In this document: positions 1-64,000 of the stretch, piece by piece
Position numbering within the stretch: the first letter of the stretch is position 1
How the letters are laid out: every line of letters begins with the position of its first letter
Assembly: GCA_003574845.1 (NCBI GenBank)
Contig: NDHY01000001.1
Coordinates: forward strand, 9,043 to 73,042
Direction: 5' to 3'
Length of the DNA stretch: 64,000 nucleotides
DNA from: a candidate division NPL-UPA2 bacterium Unc8
GTDB lineage: Bacteria > NPL-UPA2
Notes under the pieces: model-generated
What the model was told of the DNA's origin: nothing
Database searches by the model: none
Seen by the model: only the letters and a program-made list of their open reading frames with translations
Position numbers and translations under genes: made by a program

Positions 1-259
1 ACCAAAAACCTGTTTTTTGCTTGAATAACACCACCGTTTTCCATAAATCTGCTTCCTCAGAGTTCCCCTCTAAAATCAGGTGTAAATGGTCTGGCATGAA
101 GATATATACCCAATTCTTGCAGGCATATTTATTTTTTGCTTCTATCAGAATTTCTAAAAACTTCTCAACTATTATTCTCTCGGTGAAAAGAACTCTCTTT
201 TCCTCAATGCAGAAAGTAAAATTTACCCTCACTTTTCCCTTATAGGAATTTAGAGGCAA
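1..259 (-). mobile_element. REP-associated tyrosine (HUH/Y1) transposase, RAYT-like; 5' part only, runs off window edge
   Basis: Manual translation of the minus strand gives RKHRLPLNSYKGKVRVNFTFCIEEKRVLF...WVYIFMPDHLHLILEG...FKQKTGFW, with the HUH motif MPDHLH. No upstream in-frame ATG (TTG at 259 or a downstream GTG possible). Not in the ORF track. Confidence 0.85.
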
Positions 260-19577: not shown

Positions 19578-19667
19578 AACAGGCACAAAGGCACAAAGAA
19601 AATCAAAAATCAAAAGTCAAAATTACAATGCAAAATTGAAAATTAGAAATTGGTAATTAGTCATAGC

Positions 19668-19828
19668 TGTCCAAATTAGCCGTCATTACCCGGTTTAACC
19701 GGGTAATCCAGTTTTTTGCATCGACGATAGATTACATCTGGATTGCCCGATCAAGTCGGGCAATGACAGGATTGAAAATTTGATCTCAAACAGCTGTTAT
19801 CGTCGTAAAAGACTTGCTAATTTGGACA
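19668..19828. mobile_element. MITE-like element: 13-bp terminal inverted repeats enclosing an inverted GTCATT-REP doublet
   Basis: TGTCCAAATTAGC (19668-19680) and GCTAATTTGGACA (19816-19828). Inner arms GTCATTACCCGG-TTTAA-CCGGGTAATCCAG (19682-19711) and CTGGATTGCCCGA-TCAAG-TCGGGCAATGAC (19738-19767). Confidence 0.8.
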
Positions 19829-19893
19829 TGTGTGGTGATTAGTGATTAGTAATTAGTGATTGGTGACCAGTGACCAGTTACCATTTACCATTT

Positions 19894-19972
19894 ACCATTC
19901 ACCAGTTACCAACAAAGTAGCGGTGCGACCCCGATTTGCATCGGGGCATGCTTATCGATGATTGTTTCTGAA
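19894..19972. repeat. 79-bp dispersed repeat (second copy 42389-42467; shorter variant near 22018-22064)
   Basis: 78/79 identical. Contains GTAGCGGTGCGA and the hairpin CCCCGAT-TTGC-ATCGGGG-CATG. Confidence 0.9.
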
Positions 19973-20034
19973 GGCAGAATTTAGGTGTTAGCCCTGAATC
20001 AAGTTCAGGGTAGAGTTTAGGGAGCAAGATACCG

Positions 20035-21946: not shown

Positions 21947-22058
21947 GTAGTAAGTGGTAAGCAGAGAGAGATGAAATTGGAAATTGGTAACCATTGACCA
22001 TAGACCATAGACCATTTACCATTCACCAGTTACCAACAAGGTAGCGGTGCGATTTCCG
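21908..22058. repeat. Modular repeat spacer trxB-aspS
   Basis: Blocks GGCACAGA, GTAAGT(A/G), GAAATTG and GACCAT(A/T). Confidence 0.85.
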
Positions 22059-23363
22059 ATGATTAAAAGAATATTGGCTATAGAAGTAAAGGAATATATT
22101 GGGAAAGAAGTTCTGCTTCAAGGCTGGGTGCACAGAATAAGGCAGTTAGGGCAGGTTTCTTTCATCATCCTTCGCGACCGCTCAGGGATAGTGCAAACAG
22201 TAGCCGAGGAAGGAGTAGTCGCCTTTCCCGGGCTTTCCAACGAATCTATCGTTATAATTAGAGGAAAGGTATCTGCTGATGCTCGTGCCCCGGGGGGGGT
22301 TGAGGTTCGCGTTAGAGACATTGACATTCTCAGCCAGGCGCTTGACACACCTCCAATTGAAATAAATAAAAAAATTGACCTTCTAAAGACAAATCTTGAT
22401 ACGCTCCTCACTTTCCGCGCCGTCTGTCTAAGGAATCCTGACATCTTATCAATATTTAAGGTTCAAGCCGAACTTATAAGAGCATTTCGTCAGTTCTTAA
22501 TACAGGAGAACTTTACTGAAATCCATACCCCCAAGATTGTCGCTACTGGCACAGAGGGAGGGGCAGAGCTTTTTTCGGTGCGCTATTTTGAACAGAATGT
22601 CTACCTTGCCCAGAGTCCCCAGTTCTACAAGCAGATAATGGTAGGAAGCGGACTTGAGAGAGTATTTGAGGTTGGGCATGCTTACCGCGCCGAAGACCAT
22701 AACACTACCAGGCACCTGAATGAATATGTCAGCCTTGACCTGGAGATGGGATTCATAGAGAATGAGCAAGATGTCATTGAATTGCAAAAAAAACTAATTC
22801 AGTTTATGTTCACCGAGGTTAGTTCAAATTGTGCCGCGGAGTTGAAGTTGTATAAGGTAAAGACGCCGCAGTTTAAAGACATTCCGCAACTTACTCTCAT
22901 TGAAGCAAAGGAAATACTGCGCTCAAAGTGCAACAAAGACCTCAAGGAAGCGCCAGACTTAGACCCTGAAGGAGAACGGCTTCTTTGCCAATACATAAAG
23001 AAGAATACTGGCGAAGGGCTTGTCTATATTACAAGTTATCCAATCTCAAAGCGCCCGTTTTATACGATGCCAAGAGAAGATAACCCTGAGGTAAGTCGCA
23101 GCTTTGACCTTCTCTACGATGGAGAAGAAATCACAACTGGCGGGCAGCGCATTCATAATTACGGGCAATTGATTAAAAAAATGAAAGAAGCCGGGCTTAA
23201 TGAAAAAGACTTTGATTTTTACTTGCAAGCCTTTAAATATGGCATGCCTCCTCACGGAGGGCTGGCAATCGGAACTGAAAGAATTACCAAGCAGTTACTC
23301 GGGTTAGGGAATATCAGAGAGGCAAGTCTCTTTCCACGTGATAGAACGCGAGTTGCACCTTGA
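22059..23363 (+). CDS. aspS: Aspartate-tRNA(Asp/Asn) ligase, short non-discriminating/archaeal type
   Basis: About 435 aa with no GAD insertion; LAQSPQFYKQ, YRAE..HNTTRHLNE and GMPPHGG motifs. Start could be GTG 22047. Confidence 0.9.
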   Translation: MIKRILAIEVKEYIGKEVLLQGWVHRIRQLGQVSFIILRDRSGIVQTVAEEGVVAFPGLSNESIVIIRGKVSADARAPGGVEVRVRDIDILSQALDTPPIEINKKIDLLKTNLDTLLTFRAVCLRNPDILSIFKVQAELIRAFRQFLIQENFTEIHTPKIVATGTEGGAELFSVRYFEQNVYLAQSPQFYKQIMVGSGLERVFEVGHAYRAEDHNTTRHLNEYVSLDLEMGFIENEQDVIELQKKLIQFMFTEVSSNCAAELKLYKVKTPQFKDIPQLTLIEAKEILRSKCNKDLKEAPDLDPEGERLLCQYIKKNTGEGLVYITSYPISKRPFYTMPREDNPEVSRSFDLLYDGEEITTGGQRIHNYGQLIKKMKEAGLNEKDFDFYLQAFKYGMPPHGGLAIGTERITKQLLGLGNIREASLFPRDRTRVAP

Positions 23364-28279: not shown

Positions 28280-28560
28280 CACCAGTTACAAATTGCAAAC
28301 TCCCTGCCTGCGGCAGGCAGGTAAATCCTACCCTGAACTTGATTCAGGGCTAAACCCTAAACTACTTACTACCTACTACCCACCACTTACCACTTACCAC
28401 TTACCAATTACCAATTACCAATTTCCAATTACCAATTACCAATTTTCAATTTCTAATTTCCATTTTCATCTCTCTCTACTTACCACTTACTACTTACGAC
28501 TTATTTCTCTGTGCCTCTGTGCCTCTGTGCCTCTGTGCCTTTGTGCCTTTGTGCCTTTTT
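28280..28560. repeat. Composite repeat spacer pheT-pncB
   Basis: 75-bp repeat copy followed by C(C/T)ACTTA, CCAATT(A/T) and TGTGCCT(C/T) arrays. Confidence 0.9.
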
Positions 28561-40618: not shown

Positions 40619-40790
40619 AAACCCTAAACTCTAAACCCTAAACTCTAAACCCTAAATCCTACCCTGAACTTGATTCAGGGCTAAATAAATTCAAATGTTC
40701 CAAATCCAAATAACCAAAACTACGTCTTGAATTTCGGTCATTTGAGTTTTGAGTTTGTTTCGAGTTTCGAGTTTCGTATTTAGAGTTTAG
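40619..40790. mobile_element. Composite MITE-like element with inverted AAAC(C/T)CT / TTTAG(A/G)G heptamer arms, copy 1
   Basis: Core 40652-40760 is 108/109 identical to 57406-57514. Confidence 0.85.
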
Positions 40791-42042: not shown

Positions 42043-42230
42043 TTTTAACTCTCTTAGGTTTTGAATTTTGCTCTGTTTTGATTACTTAAATTTTTTACTT
42101 TGTGTAGTATTTGAGGCATTAAATCACATTTTCTAACGGGTGGCAAGTTTTTCGGTAGTTTTTTAAGGAAATGAGGAGCAAAGTGACGAATTTTCTTGCA
42201 AGCACAGTTTATTTATGGTAAGTAATAAAA

Positions 42231-42307
42231 GGGTTCAGGGTTCAGGGTTCAGGGTTCAGGGTTCAGGGTTCAGGGTTCAGGGTTCAGGGTTCAGGGTTCA
42301 GGGTTCA
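42231..42307 (+). repeat. Perfect (GGGTTCA)11 tandem array
   Basis: 77 nt, 11 identical units, followed by CTG(A/G)CT(C/T), GAC(C/T)ATT and GCTGAA(A/G) arrays up to about 42495. Confidence 0.97.
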
Positions 42308-42501
42308 AGATTCTGACTCCTGGCTCCTGAATTCTGGCTCCTGACTTCTGGCTTCTGACCCTCATTCACCATAGACCATTGACTATTGACCATTCACCAG
42401 TTACCAACAGAGTAGCGGTGCGACCCCGATTTGCATCGGGGCATGCTTATCGATGATTGTTTCTGAAAGCTGAAGGCTGAAGGCTGAAAGCTGTTAATAA
42501 A

Positions 42502-45500
42502 ATGATTCATTCTCCGTTTGTTCATCTTCACAACCATACCGAGTACAGCCTTCTGGATGGAGCATGCCGTATCTCTGAACTCGTCGCAAGGGCAGTCTCG
42601 GAGAGGATGCCTGCTCTGGCAATCACCGATCATGGAAATCTCTTTGGTGCAATCAAATTTTACCAGGAAGCAATGAAGGCAGGAGTAAAGCCAATAATTG
42701 GTTGTGAGGTTTATGTTGCTCCCAAGACAAGATTTGAGAAAACGGCATCTGGAGCAAGCACCGCAGCGCACCACCTCACACTTTTAGCTCGCAATGAGGA
42801 AGGCTACCGAAATCTGATAAAACTGACTACAGCAGGCTACCTTGAAGGTTTTTACTACCGCCCACGTGTTGATAAGCAGCTTCTTATCAAACATTGCGAA
42901 GGACTAATTGCTCTCAGTGGCTGTTTAAAGGGGGAGATTCCTCAGCTTATTGAGGATAATCAAGTAAAAGAAGCCAGAGAGGTCGCCGGCCAGTATCAGG
43001 AATTGTTCGGAAGAGAGAATTTTTTCCTGGAGATTGGAAGACAGAATATAGAGGGGCAGGTGAGAGTCAACGTCGGGCTTCTGGAGATAGGACAGCGCCT
43101 CTCAATTCCAATTGTAGCAACCAATGACTGTCACTACTTAGATAGGAATGACGCCGAAATACAGGATATCCTTATCTGTATTCAGACTGGAAAGACAATT
43201 TCCGACCCGGGACGGATGAAGTTCTCAACAGATGAGTTTTACTTCCGTTCTGCTGAGGAAATGAAGGCTCTCTTTAATGAGCTCCCCCAGGCGGTCTCAG
43301 CTACGATAGAAATTGCTGAACGTTGTAATTTAGAGCTTTTTTTTGGCAAAAGCAGATTTCCTCATTTCAAGCCTCCTCCCCCTTTTACGCTTAACAGTTA
43401 TCTGAAGAAACTTTGCCATGAGGGACTGGCGGTGCGTTACCCCGAGGGTGGAACTGCGGTTGAGGAGAGGCTTCAGCATGAGCTTGAGGTCATTGAAAAG
43501 GCAGGATACGCGAGTTACTTTCTTATTATATGGGACCTCATTCGCCATGCCCGCAAAAAAGGAATCTCAGTTGGGCCGGGCCGCGGCTCCGCAGGAGGAA
43601 GTCTCATTGCTTACCTCCTGAACATAACAGAAGTTGACCCATTGCTGCACAGTCTTCTTTTTGAACGATTTTTGAATCGTGGCCGCATCAAGCCTCCAGA
43701 TATAGATATTGATTTTGACTATGAGAAGAGAGGTGAGGTTATTGATTATCTGGTAGAAAAATATGGTGACGACAGAGTAGCCCAAATTATCACATTTGGG
43801 ACAATGGCAGCAAAAGCTGCGGTGAGAGATGTTGGAAGAGTGCTTAATATGCCCTATGGCGAGGTGGACAAGATTGCAAGGCTCATCCCCAACGAGCTAA
43901 ATATTACTCTTGCTCAGGCTCAGGAAAAGGAGCCCGAACTTAAAAATCTTGTTGACAATGACGAGCAGGTAGCGCGTCTGATTACTCTTGCCCGTAAAAT
44001 GGAAGGATTTGTGCGACATGCCTCTACTCATGCTGCGGGAGTCGTCATCTCTGAGGAGCCATTGACCAATCTCGTGCCTCTTTTCAAAGCAACAAATAAT
44101 GAGGTAACGACACAATATGATATGAACTCTCTCCTTGAGATTGGGCTCTTGAAATTAGACATCCTCGGATTGAGGACTCTCACGGTAATCAATGACACCT
44201 TCCGTCTCATCAGAGAGACACGAGAAGACGAGCTCGCGCTTCCGCAGATTCCGCTTGACGATAAGAAAACTTTTCAGTTGCTTTCTACAGCCAGGTCGCT
44301 TGGAGTCTTCCAATTAGAGAGCTCCGGGATGCAAGACCTCCTTAAGCGACTTTCCCCAACTAAATTTGATGATATTATTGCCACCATCGGGCTTCACCGG
44401 CCAGGACCGCTTGGTGGGGGAATGATTGATGAATTTATAAGCGGGAAAAAAGGAGTATCTGTAATACGCTACGACCACCCAGCATTGAAACCTATCTTAA
44501 AGGACACCTATGGGGTTATCCTCTATCAGGAGCAGATAATGGGCATTGTCAGTAAACTTGCCGGGTTTACCCTTGAGCAGTCTGACATTCTCCAGCGAGC
44601 AATCAGCAAGAAAATACCGCAAGTTATGGACGAGCAGCGCCAGGCATTCGTTGCAGGGGCGACAGAAAATAAAGTTGAAAAGCGGGTAGCTGAGAAGGTG
44701 TTTGACCTCATCTCCCGATTTGCAGGATATGGATTTAACAAGGCACATGCAACCGCCTATGCCTTGATTGCCTACCAGACGGCATACTTAAAAGCCAACT
44801 ATCCTGTAGAGTTTATGACTGCACTTCTAACCTCAGAAATGGGGAATACGGACAAAATTACCACCTACATTGACGAATGTCGGAGGATGGGAATAAAGGT
44901 TCTTCCGCCTGATGTCAATGAAAGCCAGTTGCAGTTTACAGTAACCAGAGGTGACATTCGCTGTGGTCTGGCGACGGTAAAAAATGTTGGCCGCGGGGCA
45001 ATCCGGTCCATTATCAATGCGAGAGAAAGAAAAGGTAAATTCACCTCACTTCATCAATTTTACAATGAGGTTGACCTTAGATTAGTCAATAAACGAGTTG
45101 TTGAAAGCCTTATCAAGTGCGGCTCATTTGATTCGTTAGGAATATATCGCTCCCGCCTTCTTGCCTCTCTCGGTCAAGCAATAGCATTGGCACAGAATGA
45201 ACAGAGGGCAAGAGAGAAAGGGCAGATGCCACTTTTCTCTACTGAAGAAGGGTCAATAGGTAGTTCTGAGGCATTTCCGGAAATTCCGGAGTGGCCTGAG
45301 GAAAAGCTACTCTCTATGGAAAAGGAGATACTTGGACTCTATGTCACTTCTCATCCGCTGGCAAGATACGATAGCCTTATTAAAAGATATACAACCATGA
45401 CAGGAGCCAACCCTGCCAGTGGCAGGGAAGTAATCATCGGAGGAATAATCGTTAACTTAAAGAAGGTAACAACAAAGAAAAATGGGCAAATGGCAATTTT

Positions 45501-57393: not shown

Positions 57394-57551
57394 AAATTCT
57401 AAACTCTAAATCCTACCCTGAACTTGATTCAGGGCTAAATAAATTCAAATGTTCCAAATCCAAATAACCAAAACTACGTCTTGAATTTCGGTAATTTGAG
57501 TTTTGAGTTTGTTTAGAGTTTAGAGTTTAGGGTTTCGTATTTAGGGTTTCG
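57394..57551. mobile_element. Composite MITE-like element, copy 2
   Basis: Core 57406-57514 matches 40652-40760; the right arm supplies the gmk stop codon. Confidence 0.85.
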
Positions 57552-60651: not shown

Positions 60652-61953
60652 ATGAATCTTTTGAGTGAAATTGAGAGAGTTTTCCCGCCGAGAGTCATCA
60701 GTCTTCTTCGCCGCATTGGCGAGATTGCCGAAGATAGAGGACAAAATGTATATCTTGTAGGTGGAGTGGTGCGGGACATCTTTCTCGGAGTGAAGAATTT
60801 AGACATTGACATCAGCATTGAAGGAGAAGGAATAGAATTCGCTCGCGAACTGGCCCGACAACTCACAGGATGGGTAAAAGCAGAAACAAGATTTGGAACG
60901 GCGATAGTTACTTTTCGCGGCCTCCCGAAAGTAGATGTGGCTACCTGTCGCCGGGAATACTATCATTCCCCCGGCGCATTACCTGAGGTCATCAGTTCCT
61001 CCATAAAGAATGATTTATATCGGCGCGATTTCACTATCAATGCAATGGCAGTAAAGCTTAACCCTGCCAGAATTGGAGAATTAGTTGATTTTTTCGGGGG
61101 AAGAAGCGACTTAAAAAAAGGTGTTGTGCGTAGTCTTCATAACAGGAGCTTTCTTGACGACCCTACCAGAATCTTCAGGGCGGTGCGATTTGCCGTCAGG
61201 TATAACTTCTGTATTGAAACGGACACTGAGAGTCTGATAAAAGAGGCGACGGGGCGGGTAATCTTTGATGAGATAACGATTGAGAGAGTAAGAGATGAAC
61301 TTGTTCATATCTTCAACGAGGAGTCCGTGCAGCAAGCCATCAAAAAGATGGCTGAGTTGCATGAGCTAAAATTTATTCACCCCGGGATAAAGCTTAATCC
61401 CGAAACGGAGACGTTTCTTGGTGAACTTGAGGAGGTTATTTCCTGGTTTCAGAGTTCATTCCCGGGGGAAAAAATTAAGAAGTGGCTTAGCTATTTCATT
61501 GCTCTTCTTGACGAGCTAACCATTGATGAGGCAAAGATTACTTTGAAACGATTCCACTTTAGTGAAAAACAAACAAAAGAGGCGGTGAGAATGAAAAAAA
61601 GTGCCTCAGGAAGGCTTGCGGCACTGGGAAGAAAGGAATCAAAGCCCAGCGAGATTTATCGGCAGTTAAGAGGACTATCCGTTGAATTACTACTCTTTCT
61701 TATGGCAAAAGCTCGTGGTACTGCCCGTCAGAGAATTTTACTTTACTTAACAAAACTCCGCCATGTGAGATTGACGATAAGTGGGGAGGACTTGAGGAAA
61801 GCTGGTCTTTCGCCAGGACCTGAATTTGCAACAATCCTTAATAATATGCTCTTAACTAAGCTGGACGGCTGTCTTGAAACCAGAGAAGATGAACTAATAT
61901 ATGTAAATTCTTATCTTAAAGAGCAGCGTTTGAAACTATCTAAGCTTGTGTAG
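60652..61953 (+). CDS. Class II tRNA nucleotidyltransferase (CCA- or A-adding)
   Basis: GGVVRD..DIDI, DLYRRDFTINAMA and DDPTRIFRAVRF motifs. Confidence 0.9.
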   Translation: MNLLSEIERVFPPRVISLLRRIGEIAEDRGQNVYLVGGVVRDIFLGVKNLDIDISIEGEGIEFARELARQLTGWVKAETRFGTAIVTFRGLPKVDVATCRREYYHSPGALPEVISSSIKNDLYRRDFTINAMAVKLNPARIGELVDFFGGRSDLKKGVVRSLHNRSFLDDPTRIFRAVRFAVRYNFCIETDTESLIKEATGRVIFDEITIERVRDELVHIFNEESVQQAIKKMAELHELKFIHPGIKLNPETETFLGELEEVISWFQSSFPGEKIKKWLSYFIALLDELTIDEAKITLKRFHFSEKQTKEAVRMKKSASGRLAALGRKESKPSEIYRQLRGLSVELLLFLMAKARGTARQRILLYLTKLRHVRLTISGEDLRKAGLSPGPEFATILNNMLLTKLDGCLETREDELIYVNSYLKEQRLKLSKLV

Positions 61954-62724
61954 TCGCTTGAGCTTACGAGGAGTAAATAGTTCATTTCCCAACCCCTGGT
62001 CAAAGGTGACCTCAGTGATGCGTATTTCTATTTCTCTTTCTCTCCTGAGGTCAGATATTGCACTTACCCGTGGAAGCCAATATCCATCTGTTTTTTCCCA
62101 CTCATCCATTTTCGCCACTCTTTGCAGCTTACCCTCTCTATCATATTGCTCAATCATCACAGGATAAAACTCATCTTTTCTTATCCACACTCTCAGTACG
62201 GGATAGTCTGTCTCAATACTCTCCTTGATTTTGAGTTTAAGGATGTAGTGAACAAGCCCCTGGAGCTTCTCGCTTCCAAGAAGCGTAGGCTCATAGTCGT
62301 CAATGTGAATGATTAGCGCCTCCATGTCAGCTGGCGTGAAGCCGGTGCCAAGAAAGTCAGCGTCTCCCTCCATCTCTTCTAAGGAAATTCTTTCTGCCTC
62401 CCTCCAGATAGGAAGGTATACATATCTCACATTATTCGGCAGAGTGAGAATTGCCGTTCTTCTCAGGCGGTCGGGATAAAGAAACATAAGGACTCCTTTT
62501 TCTCCTTTCTGCCATATTCTCACTATTCTTTTTCTCTCTCGCTTTCCTTCCTCATTGATGATTAACTCGGCAACAATTTCTCTGTCTGCAGGGGCATTGA
62601 CTATGTCATCACTCTTTATTAAAATCTCCCGGGCAGTGAGTTCTTCGCTGTTCCCGGCTAAAGACAATCCAATAATCAGCCCTGCAATTCCTACCGCTAT
62701 GAATAGATTTTTTGCTTTCATCAT
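61936..62724 (-). CDS. LolA-like outer-membrane lipoprotein-sorting family protein
   Basis: Signal peptide, FLYP, YVYLP, FLGTGFT..D and YDREGKL motifs; start 62724 or 62721. Confidence 0.75.
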   Translation of the reverse strand: MMKAKNLFIAVGIAGLIIGLSLAGNSEELTAREILIKSDDIVNAPADREIVAELIINEEGKRERKRIVRIWQKGEKGVLMFLYPDRLRRTAILTLPNNVRYVYLPIWREAERISLEEMEGDADFLGTGFTPADMEALIIHIDDYEPTLLGSEKLQGLVHYILKLKIKESIETDYPVLRVWIRKDEFYPVMIEQYDREGKLQRVAKMDEWEKTDGYWLPRVSAISDLRREREIEIRITEVTFDQGLGNELFTPRKLKRLHKLR

Positions 62725-62786
62725 TAGCCGAACTCTACCATTTGCCTGCAAGGGCTGTCAATCTACAAATATCAAGGACATTACTC

Positions 62787-62847
62787 TTGACAGGGAGTAG
62801 AGAAAAGTGCTAAATTCTTATACAAGAAAGGTTGCTCGGCAACCTTT
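62787..62847 (+). promoter_or_regulatory. Putative promoter followed by a perfect 9-bp inverted repeat
   Basis: TTGACA-N18-TAAATT (62787-62816); AAAGGTTGC-TCG-GCAACCTTT (62827-62847). Confidence 0.55.
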
Positions 62848-62899
62848 AACGAAATTCATCTATTAATTAATTGTTATATTGAAAGACAATTTAAAAATT

Positions 62900-63277
62900 T
62901 GTCATTCCCCGGCTTGACCGGGGAATCCAGAAAAGAATGGAGAAAAATTATTACGTTTACATTTTAGCAAGTAAGCGAAATGGGACGTTATACATTGGAA
63001 TAAGCTCTGATTTAATAAAACGAACCTGGGAACATAAGAATAAAATTGTTGAAGGTTTTACACAAAAATACAATGTTGATAAACTTGTATACTATGAACA
63101 ATACCAAAACCCAGAGAATGCAATAAGACGAGAGAAAAGATTAAAGAAATATAACCGCAAATGAAAATTAGATCTGATAGAAAAATTCAATCCCAATTGG
63201 GAAGATTTATACGATGATATTTCTGGATTGTCCGATCGAGCATGCCCTCTGACTCGATCAGGGGTCGGACAATGACA
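62900..63277. mobile_element. GIY-YIG gene bracketed by inverted GTCATT-type REP palindromes
   Basis: Left arm TGTCATTCCCCGG-CTTGA-CCGGGGAATCCAG; right arm CTGGATTGTCCGA...TCGGACAATGACA with a 24-nt nested insert. Confidence 0.8.
62937..63275 (+). pseudogene. GIY-YIG nuclease with an internal TGA
   Basis: YYVYILASKRNGTLYIG and AIRREKRLK motifs; TGA at 63162-63164, then KLDLIEKFNPNWEDLY continues in frame. Confidence 0.85.
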
Positions 63278-63291
63278 TAAAGAATAAAAAC

Positions 63292-63348
63292 ATATAACAA
63301 TTCGCTCCAGCGAACGGCTACCGCCGTCGCTGAGCTTGGCCGTTAGCC
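63292..63348 (+). other. attC-like integron cassette recombination site
   Basis: ATATAAC...GTTAGCC cores; inner CTC(C)AGCGA/TCGCTGAG stem with one extrahelical base; 57 bp. Confidence 0.75.
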
Positions 63349-63371
63349 TATGTAGAAGGGGAGGTGATACT

Positions 63372-63557
63372 ATGCATTCAGCAAAAGAGCAGATGAGCAA
63401 AATCATTCATGAACAGCCTGATGATAGCTCCTACGACGAAGTGCTTCGTGAGTTAGCTTTTGCTCGAATGGTTGAGCGTGGTATAGAGGACTCTGATGCA
63501 AAGAGGACAATCAGCAATGTCGAAATGAAACATAGGATTAGAACATGGGGGAAATAA
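63372..63557 (+). CDS. Small putative antitoxin (partner of a RelE/ParE toxin)
   Basis: GGAGGT Shine-Dalgarno; MHSAKEQ...QPDDSSYDEVLREL...; overlaps the toxin start. Confidence 0.75.
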   Translation: MHSAKEQMSKIIHEQPDDSSYDEVLRELAFARMVERGIEDSDAKRTISNVEMKHRIRTWGK

Positions 63558-63643
63558 ACTGGACTGAGGAAGCGGAACGATGGCTCAAGGATATCCACGG
63601 CTACATAGCTCAGGATAGCCCAGAATCAGCGGTTTATTGCTAA
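63545..63643 (+). pseudogene. Truncated RelE/ParE-family toxin
   Basis: MGEINWTEEAERWLKDIHGYIAQDSPESA is a typical ParE N-terminus; it stops after 32 aa. Confidence 0.75.
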
Positions 63644-63659
63644 AAATATCATTAGCTAA

Positions 63660-63932
63660 GGGGTCGTATCAAAATAATGTTAACCATTTGCCAGAGGTGA
63701 TTTTGGAGCGAGACAAGGAATGAAGAGTGAAACGTAGCCAAAGCGCTACGGAAGCGATGAGTAACGCAGTCGCAGCCCAAAAGCGACCTGGCCCTTCGGG
63801 GAGTCCCGTCTTTGGGCCATTGCGGCGTTGCTCCTCGGTTATGTGCCACAGCGGGCACACTGCCCTCGTCGCACCTTGCACTGACCTCAAATCTGGGACT
63901 CCAAATAGTCAAGATTATTCTGATACGACCCC
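63660..63932. mobile_element. 273-bp MITE with ~31-bp imperfect TIRs and TAA target duplication
   Basis: GGGGTCGTATCAAAATAATGTTAACCATTTG versus the reverse complement of the right end GGGGTCGTATCAGAATAATCTTGACTATTTG (27/31); TAA on both flanks. Confidence 0.85.
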
Positions 63933-63989
63933 TAACACCTGACCGCTATTCCGCTGGCGCTTTTTGGCGGGTGAGTTCTATCGTTAGCA
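63933..63989 (+). other. Second, degenerate attC-like site interrupted by the MITE
   Basis: Removing the MITE restores GCTAAC...CACC(TGA)CCGC...GCGGGTG...GTTAGC. Confidence 0.6.
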
Positions 63990-64000
63990 TAAAAATTAAA

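Follow-up and report, generated by a model that had tools for sequence, protein, structure and literature searches.

A CATG-tagged micro-hairpin in the loops of Ssn-related hairpin repeats from a candidate division NPL-UPA2 bacterium and other lineages

The closest described relatives of the repeats considered here are the SRM/NTS (dRS3-type) hairpins, where SRM stands for Ssn-related motif, together with the SsnA GIY-YIG nucleases of single-stranded DNA (Chenal et al. 2025, PMC11893778). According to the main text of that work, the hairpin is recognised by SsnA in single-stranded form and cleavage falls a few bases upstream of it rather than in the loop, whose identity is not essential and whose extension is tolerated. 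Neither nested or inserted forms nor a conserved CATG-hairpin cargo at a fixed loop position are mentioned in that main text, and our literature search found no paper describing a CATG-plus-hairpin cargo. Here we analyse such segments in a stretch of 64,000 nucleotides (the window) of contig NDHY01000001.1 from the candidate division NPL-UPA2 bacterium Unc8. Each consists of CATG and a small hairpin, 22 to 25 nt in all, and lies at the end of the loop of a larger host hairpin; one form (63241-type) is found in an SRM beside an ssnA-like gene and the other (19929-type) in a GTAG-type hairpin core (Table 1). The SRM-Ssn host system was already known, and CATG-hairpin cargo in the loops of its hairpins is new. 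On balance we favour the reading that the CATG micro-hairpin is a discrete loop cargo that has the SRM as its main host and has mostly been spreading with it.

In the terms of the published main text, the window resembles the SRM-Ssn system in its host hairpins with a GTCATT...AATCC(AG) frame, one of which matches the published search sequence, in the two SRMs placed around a single-domain GIY-YIG gene of roughly 95 aa, and in the inverted doublets, present at 60-90 copies in some genomes. It differs in loop length, since the search sequence given there permits a loop of 0-5 nt only and long SRMs were therefore missed. The nearest precedent for the cargo itself comes from cyanobacteria. Elhai et al. 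in 2008 reportedly described small dispersed repeats (SDRs) of the Nostocaceae, said to be 21-27 nt long and to show hairpins with compensatory changes, nesting and tandem heptamer arrays. In the portions of two later papers drawn on here, SDR5 sits between bases 3 and 4 of HIP1 and SDRs are stated not to be found outside the Nostocaceae (PMC5861425, PMC4390886). The cargo is like an SDR in its length of 22-25 nt, its fixed junction inside another repeat and its triple nesting in one assembly (PGYF01); unlike SDRs, and comparing by description only, it is hosted by SRM and GTAG-type hairpins in non-cyanobacterial lineages. Repetitive extragenic palindromic (REP) sequences, their doublets (REPINs) and the associated RAYT proteins, within the part of the account by Bertels and Rainey (2011, PMC3116915) used here, offer a further parallel: the short hairpins have multiplied as inverted doublets and are tied to a nuclease or transposase gene that they flank, and the 19929-type host likewise carries GTAG 5′ of its hairpin. 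The 63241 host, in contrast, is tied to a GIY-YIG gene and not to a Y1 gene, and a loop cargo lies outside that model.

The window belongs to a genome (G000) of 996 kb in 24 contigs, 94.7% complete, from a small phylum of which 13 genomes were examined, G000 included; genes of its congener, G001, are 85-92% identical. The strings quoted in the original prediction, which had been made from the letters of the window alone, were all present at 19929-19950, 42424-42445 and 63241-63264, and its description was accurate in that the stems differ while the CATG tag and the AG^ site are kept, the segment following a loop that ends in AG and preceding the 3′ arm. Hairpins that are otherwise identical either contain the whole cargo or lack it exactly. 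In G001, a decayed copy of the ssnA-like gene ends ...gatatttctgggTTGTCCGATCGAG|TCGGACAA (also ...TTGTCCGATCGAG|TCGGACAA), with the 24 bases of the cargo absent, and the resulting empty hairpin, GTCCGA-TCGAG-TCGGAC, shares its arms and its rare TCGAG loop with the SRM at 63225-63276; because that locus is non-syntenic, the site is homologous, not proven orthologous. The expectation that removal of the segment restores the host hairpin was thus borne out exactly at 63241 and partly at 19929 and 42424, where the 3′ arm is the degenerate TCGATG. A second pair comes from G061, in which the doublet GTCATTGTCCGGCTTGACCGGACAATCC-AGGATAGGGTAT-GGATTCCCCGATCAAG|TCGTGGAATGAC is empty in all four loci examined (about 20 listed) and also occurs filled with CATGCCCTCTGACTTGATCAGGGGG, the left SRM, the 12-nt spacer and the imperfect right arm TCGTGG being the same in both. 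A covariance model was built on 67 distinct long SRMs from other genomes, of the form GGATT-arm-TYRAG-CATG-hairpin-arm-AATGAC; aligned to it, each of the window's three short SRMs departs from the long form by a single clean deletion of 24-25 model positions. As the original prediction had stated, no target duplication was seen at any site; nor do direct repeats lie at the junctions of the 63241-type cargo. Empty SRMs with a TYRAG loop and filled ones (TYRAG plus CATG) numbered 2 and 1 in G000, 72 and 4 in G006, 64 and 3 in G008, 5 and 1 in G012, and 1 and 1 in G009, there with a different inner hairpin; homologous hairpins therefore do exist without the segment. Contigs from four public runs covering 61800-64000 contained no joint that skips the cargo and gave no sign of polymorphism; those of two DNA runs span 63225-63276 unchanged, and those of an RNA library end inside the cargo and provide no evidence for transcription.

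The original prediction had taken the hosts to be REP hairpins. For the 63241-type this has to be revised: its host is an SRM/NTS motif flanking a GIY-YIG gene rather than a RAYT-type REP, an assignment drawn from sequence comparison through the GTCATT...AATCC(AG) frame and the matches to the published search. SRMs stand on both sides of the ssnA-like gene (62901-62928 and 63225-63276), and the published search sequence (5′ GTCWY, palindromic arms, short loop, 3′ RNCY) matches 62900-62930. The same search gave seven matches in all in G000 against two in a reversed control, including three NTS-type strings elsewhere in the genome, one of them identical to the Neisseria consensus. The hairpins at 19682-19709 and 19740-19767, like the arms of 63225-63276, keep to the GTCATT/AATCC frame but not to the narrower arm positions of the search sequence. 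The ssnA-like gene has a GIY-YIG domain (53.6 bits) and encodes 112 aa if an internal TGA is read through; this TGA (63162-63164) is in frame where relatives lead one to expect W, and the frame resumes through the C-terminal motif, so that the gene is either a pseudogene or subject to readthrough. Stops are also present in many ssnA-like copies of other genomes. Against solved structures the protein gave only weak matches, to the UPF0213 proteins 1zg2 and 1ywl. The string identical to the Neisseria NTS consensus, CGTCATTCCCGCGAACGCGGGAATCCAG, lies outside the window at 109872-109899 of contig C1, in a distant small phylum, and is 64 nt upstream of a 19929-type copy.

The inner hairpin is under structural constraint, with compensatory changes and a conserved T·G pair. 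Pairs were counted from both ends across 63 distinct long SRMs with 49 distinct inner sequences and 22 distinct 5′ arms. Pair 1 of the inner stem was C-G in 48 and T-A in 9, pair 4 was T·G in 50, T-A in 6 and C-G in 6, pair 6 was G-C in 30, T-A in 16, A-T in 5 and C-G in 5, and pair 7 was A-T in 33 and G-C in 19. In the alignment used (A1), whose pre-selection for hairpins biases it toward pairing and not toward compensatory change, 89.3% of cells were paired and 59 cells had changed on both sides; none of 500 shuffles reached the observed covariation and all slid controls were far lower. Outside pair 4, 14 cells were G·T and 4 were A·C, which places the fold on the GGATT strand, opposite to the strand cut by SsnA. 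The outcome of cargo at this position would be a two-tier hairpin, and in the predicted fold the inner hairpin stacks on the outer stem formed by the outer arms, while the old loop and CATG form a one-sided bulge of 8-9 nt. Judged from these sequences, the segment appears to be a discrete and structurally constrained loop cargo of 22-25 nt.

The 63241-type 24-mer, searched with two degenerate positions in the genome contig collection, was found in 86 copies at 79 loci of 12 assemblies, 51 of these loci in PGYF01 alone; viral contigs gave no match to it. Its insertion site is conserved, as the original prediction had proposed to check: AAG directly precedes the 24-mer in 77 of the 81 copies with a readable left flank and TCAAG in 74 of them. 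The GGATT...AATGAC frame directly surrounds it in 41 of the 74 copies with both flanks readable, and in many of the remaining copies the cargo sits in a second-level hairpin nested in an SRM, giving triple nesting. In the PGYF01 loci L296-L370, a CCCCGCA-TCAAG-...-TGCGGGG hairpin follows the CTTGA loop of the SRM and holds the cargo, and the units are often trailed by partial tandem copies of ...GGGGGTCGTGGAATGAC. An open search (GGATT-N5-6-TCAAGCATG...AATGAC) returned at least 121 loci; those listed comprise 86 distinct sequences, 63 to 67 of them with an inner hairpin, and chance matches among them were put at about ten, or roughly 15 by a hand estimate. The hairpin-bearing loci listed are labelled Nitrospirota, Thermodesulfovibrionia, Nitrospinota, Omnitrophota, Schekmanbacteria, Actinomycetota, Thermodesulfobacteriota, WOR-3, Gammaproteobacteria and several Patescibacteria groups, phylum names that are the depositors' labels of metagenome-assembled genomes (MAGs), and some of these records may duplicate our G-numbered genomes. 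Among the loci listed, the long SRM usually stands on the right in an inverted doublet or flanks the gene on its 3′ side. No ssnA C-terminus was matched upstream of the 121 listed long SRMs, which are mostly gene-less doublets. Three open reading frames (ORFs) with a GIY-YIG-like N-terminal pattern in G062, G063 and G065, from eight regions examined, had no GTCATT/AATCC hairpins in their 110-nt flanks and are therefore silent on long versus short ends.

The 19929-type was found only in G000 among the genomes of its phylum, with 12 exact copies of the 22-mer and one with a single mismatch, 13 in all, a fourteenth being truncated by a contig end; the backwards control and the other 12 genomes gave no match. 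In the window, the plus strand at 19929-19946 is the perfect hairpin CCCCGAT-TTGC-ATCGGGG (CCCCGATTTGCATCGGGG), followed by CATG at 19947-19950, and the second copy stands 56 nt upstream of a dnaE-like start at 42502; the best relatives of this DnaE reach only 49-59% identity, under mixed labels. A loose CATGCCC..GGG pattern, of the kind suggested in the original prediction, had five matches at three loci of the window where 1.24 were expected, a count that 3 of 100 shuffles also attained; that pattern alone is not beyond chance, and the weight rests on the exact repeats that were found. Twelve of the 13 copies share the core GCGGTGCGA | hairpin-CATG | CTTA-TCG(CAC/ATG)-ATTGTTTC(TGAA), with variable heptamer arrays on both sides. 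GTAG is present in the host of 10/13 copies and GTAGC precedes the arm in 9/13, while the 3′ arm is the matching TCGCAC in 7/13 and TCGATG in 4/13, both window copies among the latter. The thirteenth copy, on contig C15, carries an identical 28-nt unit between different complementary arms, so that the same unit occurs in two hairpins (GTGCGA/TCGCAC and GCCTCA/TGAGGC), GTAG preceding both. Read from CATG, the 19929-type junctions are ...ATAAG|CATGCCCC...GGGG|TCG; both types have the 10-mer AAGCATGCCC and end flush in GGGG|T, and the copies at 19929 and 42424 share the AAG|CATGCCC...GGGG|T junctions with the long SRM, without the GGATT/AATGAC frames and without the T·G pair. These sequence features allow the family to be read as related to the cargo architecture and lineage-specific, with an amplification to 13 copies, most of which lie shortly upstream of genes.

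Searches beyond the phylum found no exact match to the 22-mer with CATG in the genome contig collection and five metagenome contigs, all of the same or a close strain. The bare 18-mer hairpin occurs at more than 115 loci of that collection, mostly unrelated terminators and Streptomyces contig-end repeats, and is therefore by itself not diagnostic. CATG is not a general tag in G000, where it precedes six distinct perfect hairpins against a mean of 13.75 per 4-mer, with no enrichment beyond the two elements. In the DAOUGB01 MAG (L005, L053, L065, L067, L073, L074 and related loci), the 18-mer CCCCGATTTGCATCGGGG lies inside GGATTCT...AGAATGAC hairpins without CATG.

Table 1 Positions in the window of the CATG micro-hairpins, their host hairpins and associated features
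Feature	Position	Strand	Description
63241-type cargo	63241..63264	+	CATGCCCTCTGACTCGATCAGGGG between TCGAG and TCGGAC; CATG plus CCCTCTGA-CTCGA-TCAGGGG
Long SRM	63225..63276	+	GGATT-GTCCGA-TCGAG-[cargo]-TCGGAC-AATGAC; 65.3 bits, E 2e-16 with the long-SRM model
Short SRM upstream of ssnA-like gene	62901..62928	-	Plus strand GTCATTCCCCGGCTTGACCGGGGAATCC; 34.4 bits, exact 24-position deletion relative to the long form
Short (empty) SRM paralogue	19740..19767	+	GGATTGCCCGA-TCAAG-TCGGGCAATGAC; 34.5 bits
Short SRM	19682..19709	-	Inverted doublet with 19740-19767; 26.9 bits
ssnA-like single-domain GIY-YIG gene	62937..63275	+	Frame ends within the long SRM
19929-type cargo, copy 1	19929..19950	-	CATG plus CCCCGAT-GCAA-ATCGGGG; 7-bp hairpin when folded
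Host 5′ frame and arm, copy 1	19917..19928	+	GTAGC-GGTGCGA, GTAG-type hairpin core
Host 3′ side, copy 1	19951..19972	+	Loop CTTA, degenerate 3′ arm TCGATG, conserved tail ATTGTTTCTGAA; heptamer arrays next
19929-type cargo, copy 2	42424..42445	-	22-mer identical to copy 1
Host 5′ frame and arm, copy 2	42412..42423	+	GTAGCGGTGCGA
Empty-like copy of 19929-type host core	22041..22064	+	GTAGCGGTGCGA-TTTCCGATGATT; overlaps the next gene start (ATG at 22059)
Third hairpin family	2819-2837, 19992-20010, 28331-28349, 40662-40680, 57416-57434		

SRM hairpins (GTCATT-arm-loop-arm-AATCC) flank the small GIY-YIG ssDNA nucleases encoded by ssnA and form REPIN-like inverted doublets, and the cargo always follows the final base of the loop (...AAG) and directly precedes the 3′ arm. 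In the mechanism that we propose, it may have entered SRM loops through rare events on single strands, where loop and stem of the extruded hairpin meet, and its spread would then have followed chiefly from amplification of the host unit, both the ssnA unit and the gene-less doublets. Ssn would probably tolerate such a cargo, as loop identity and loop extensions are irrelevant to its cleavage; since SsnA cuts outside a loop that is dispensable and extensible, a loop cargo should not disable the host. The original prediction had seen a free parasite of REPs in the element. Because most copies have spread along with their hosts and the inner stem has changed in a compensatory way over the long term, a constrained component fits better than such a parasite.

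Several observations weigh against reading the micro-hairpin as a discrete cargo, above all for the 19929-type, for which no clean empty site was found in G000 or in the strain comparison. The core at 22041-22064 does lack the segment, as had been claimed, but its junction is not clean, being GCGGTGCGA-TTTC-CGATGATT where clean removal would leave GCGGTGCGA-CTTAT-CGATGATT. The three empty-like cores (22041-22064 and those on contigs C7 and C21) read GGTGCGA-TTT(TT)C-CGAYGATT, are not the product of clean excision and differ from the expected junction by one indel and two substitutions. An equally good second alignment assigns CCGAT, the 5′ arm of the "insert", to the host and leaves 24 other bases as extra, and an empty GTGCGA-CTTA-TCGCAC hairpin does not occur in G000. 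At two loci where metagenome contigs of a close strain carry the filled core, G000 shows either an empty-like core with additional heptamers or different repeats altogether, so what varies between strains is the whole module with its heptamer arrays and not the 22-mer alone; in G001, the intergenic region matching 19600-20034 holds wholly different repeats and the region around the C15 copy is non-syntenic, both being uninformative on an empty site. The long-SRM covariance model gave the copies at 19929 and 42424 a score of 10.7 bits (E about 1), with only model positions 9-43 aligned. For the 63241-type, the empty copy of G001 lies in a decayed gene at a non-syntenic place, and the direction of gain or loss is not established. 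Filled copies within a genome use few arm types (all three in G008 have CCGCA, and G061 has two contexts), hence few insertion events are needed, and no enzyme is tied to the cargo. Nested SRM hairpins without CATG exist too, such as GTCATTCTCC-TCCTCCGACTTGATCGGAGGA-TCGACCGGAGAATCC (L241, at about 1390-1435 of contig C40 in G001; L247 and L266 of G008 are also listed) and, from the same set, GTCATTCCCG-CCCCGTATCAAGTACGGGG-TAAATTGCAA-CGGGAATCC. Finally, all data are draft genomes and MAGs, and the copies were collected with patterns that demand CATG, loop cargo with other tags lying outside the count.

In a stronger version of the cargo reading, the CATG hairpin would be mobile in its own right, one of the smallest such units known at about 24 nt; it would insert at the loop/3′-arm junction of extruded SRM or REP-like hairpins by means of a host single-strand enzyme (Ssn or a Y1 protein) and would have crossed phyla as a parasite of a parasite. 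This version is tentative, and we think it improbable while still granting it some weight.

The order of events could also be the reverse, with the long two-tier hairpin original and functional, for example as the right end of the ssnA unit or as a protein-binding site, and with short SRMs as deletion derivatives into which nothing was inserted. In its favour, the SRM on the 3′ side of the window's ssnA-like gene is long and the one on the 5′ side short, the long form takes the right-hand place of the inverted doublet in most loci listed, its inner stem is structurally constrained, and the gene around the empty G001 copy has undergone an internal deletion of 134 nt as well. This account is nevertheless unlikely, because short forms outnumber long ones 72 to 4 in G006 and 64 to 3 in G008, the published family including the Neisseria NTS is short as far as the main text of PMC11893778 presents it, and there are no direct repeats beside the cargo to favour an exact deletion.

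A link to HUH transposases had been suggested at the outset, and in this account a non-autonomous element of 22-24 nt would be moved in trans by a Y1 enzyme of the IS200/IS605 or RAYT type and inserted 3′ of the loop YRAG without duplication. IS200/IS605 elements act on hairpins in single-stranded DNA and insert, without duplication, 3′ of a short conserved sequence; their two subterminal hairpins differ from each other (in IS608 the cleavage sites are offset from them), and they carry or need TnpA. The cargo is like them in lying 3′ of a fixed short sequence (AAG in 77/81 copies, as (C/T)AAG) with no duplication seen; G000 has six Y1_Tnp genes in 1 Mb, one of them at the start of the window; Y1_Tnp is present in all five other cargo-bearing genomes tested; and GTAG stands 5′ of the 19929-type host hairpin as in RAYT REPs. 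Unlike those elements, the cargo has a single hairpin that coincides with one of its ends, and no HUH gene is linked to it. None of the six Y1_Tnp genes of G000 has a CATG hairpin within 220 nt on either side, and their flanks carry other hairpins, namely GGTAGC-CGCAGG REPs and private inverted repeats. Y1_Tnp also occurs in 6 of 14 control genomes, so its co-occurrence with the cargo says little, and as both Y1 and ssnA-like sequences are found in all five other cargo genomes tested, that comparison discriminates nothing. Copies have moreover spread mainly with host units, their inner stems diverging by compensatory change across lineages, and transposition in trans by an HUH enzyme seems to us quite improbable. 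The Y1_Tnp (RAYT-like) gene of the window (1-232, minus strand, continuing upstream in contig C1 of G000) is flanked by GGTAGC-CGCAGG...CCTGCG REPs, and G000 has a REPIN-like doublet family in which GGTAGC-CGCAGGC-TTCA-GCCTGCG is paired with CGCAACC-TAAA-GGTTGCG-GCTACC.

It is more doubtful still that the cargo acts as RNA, its CAUG bulge and G·U hairpin being a transcribed signal for processing, stability or regulation, with the 19929-type in 5′ leaders. Both the T·G (G·U) pair and the surplus of G·T cells relative to A·C cells are strand-specific and on the sense strand of the ssnA-like gene, and 8 of the 13 copies of the 19929-type are just upstream of a co-directional ORF, one overlapping its predicted start. 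G·T is, however, equally tolerated in single-stranded DNA, most long SRMs are in gene-less doublets, and an Rfam scan of the window brought only three tRNAs to the gathering score and no family for the cargo. Chance resemblance or an assembly artefact, to which only the lack of significance of the loose CATGCCC..GGG pattern in the window lends anything, is refuted by the 13 near-identical copies in G000, the 86 copies of the second element across 12 assemblies and the contigs of independent runs that span 63225-63276 unchanged, and its probability is negligible.

The surroundings of the 19929-type are rich in other repeats. Intergenic tandem heptamer or octamer arrays of many units are spread over 1429-57628 of the window (30 rows, e.g. 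19835-19911 and 42230-42399); they resemble the STRR repeats of cyanobacteria, in a non-cyanobacterial genome of 1 Mb, and hairpin cores lie at array junctions. G000 also holds 14 copies of a third hairpin family, CCCTGAA-TCAAG/CTTGA-TTCAGGG, inside CTAAAxC heptamer arrays. This family is flanked by CTA...CTA, hairpin and CTA together making 22 nt, and is like the inner hairpin of the cargo without CATG. Genes starting ATGATTAAAAG (MIKR...) stand directly behind repeat cores at 22059 and 20035 of the window and on contig C20 of G000, the first of these starts being overlapped by the empty-like core at 22041-22064.

For the SRM family, the long form means that published censuses with a 0-5-nt loop, as that search is given in the main text, overlook a whole class of sites. 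Ssn nucleases and SRMs were described in 2025 and, according to the same text, proposed as programmable tools for single-stranded DNA with a replaceable or extendable loop; a natural cargo occupies exactly that loop position, and permits a direct test of its recognition by Ssn or a partner protein. The cargo also represents a second case, outside cyanobacteria, of tiny repeats located at one exact position in others, and reopens the question of how such units move.

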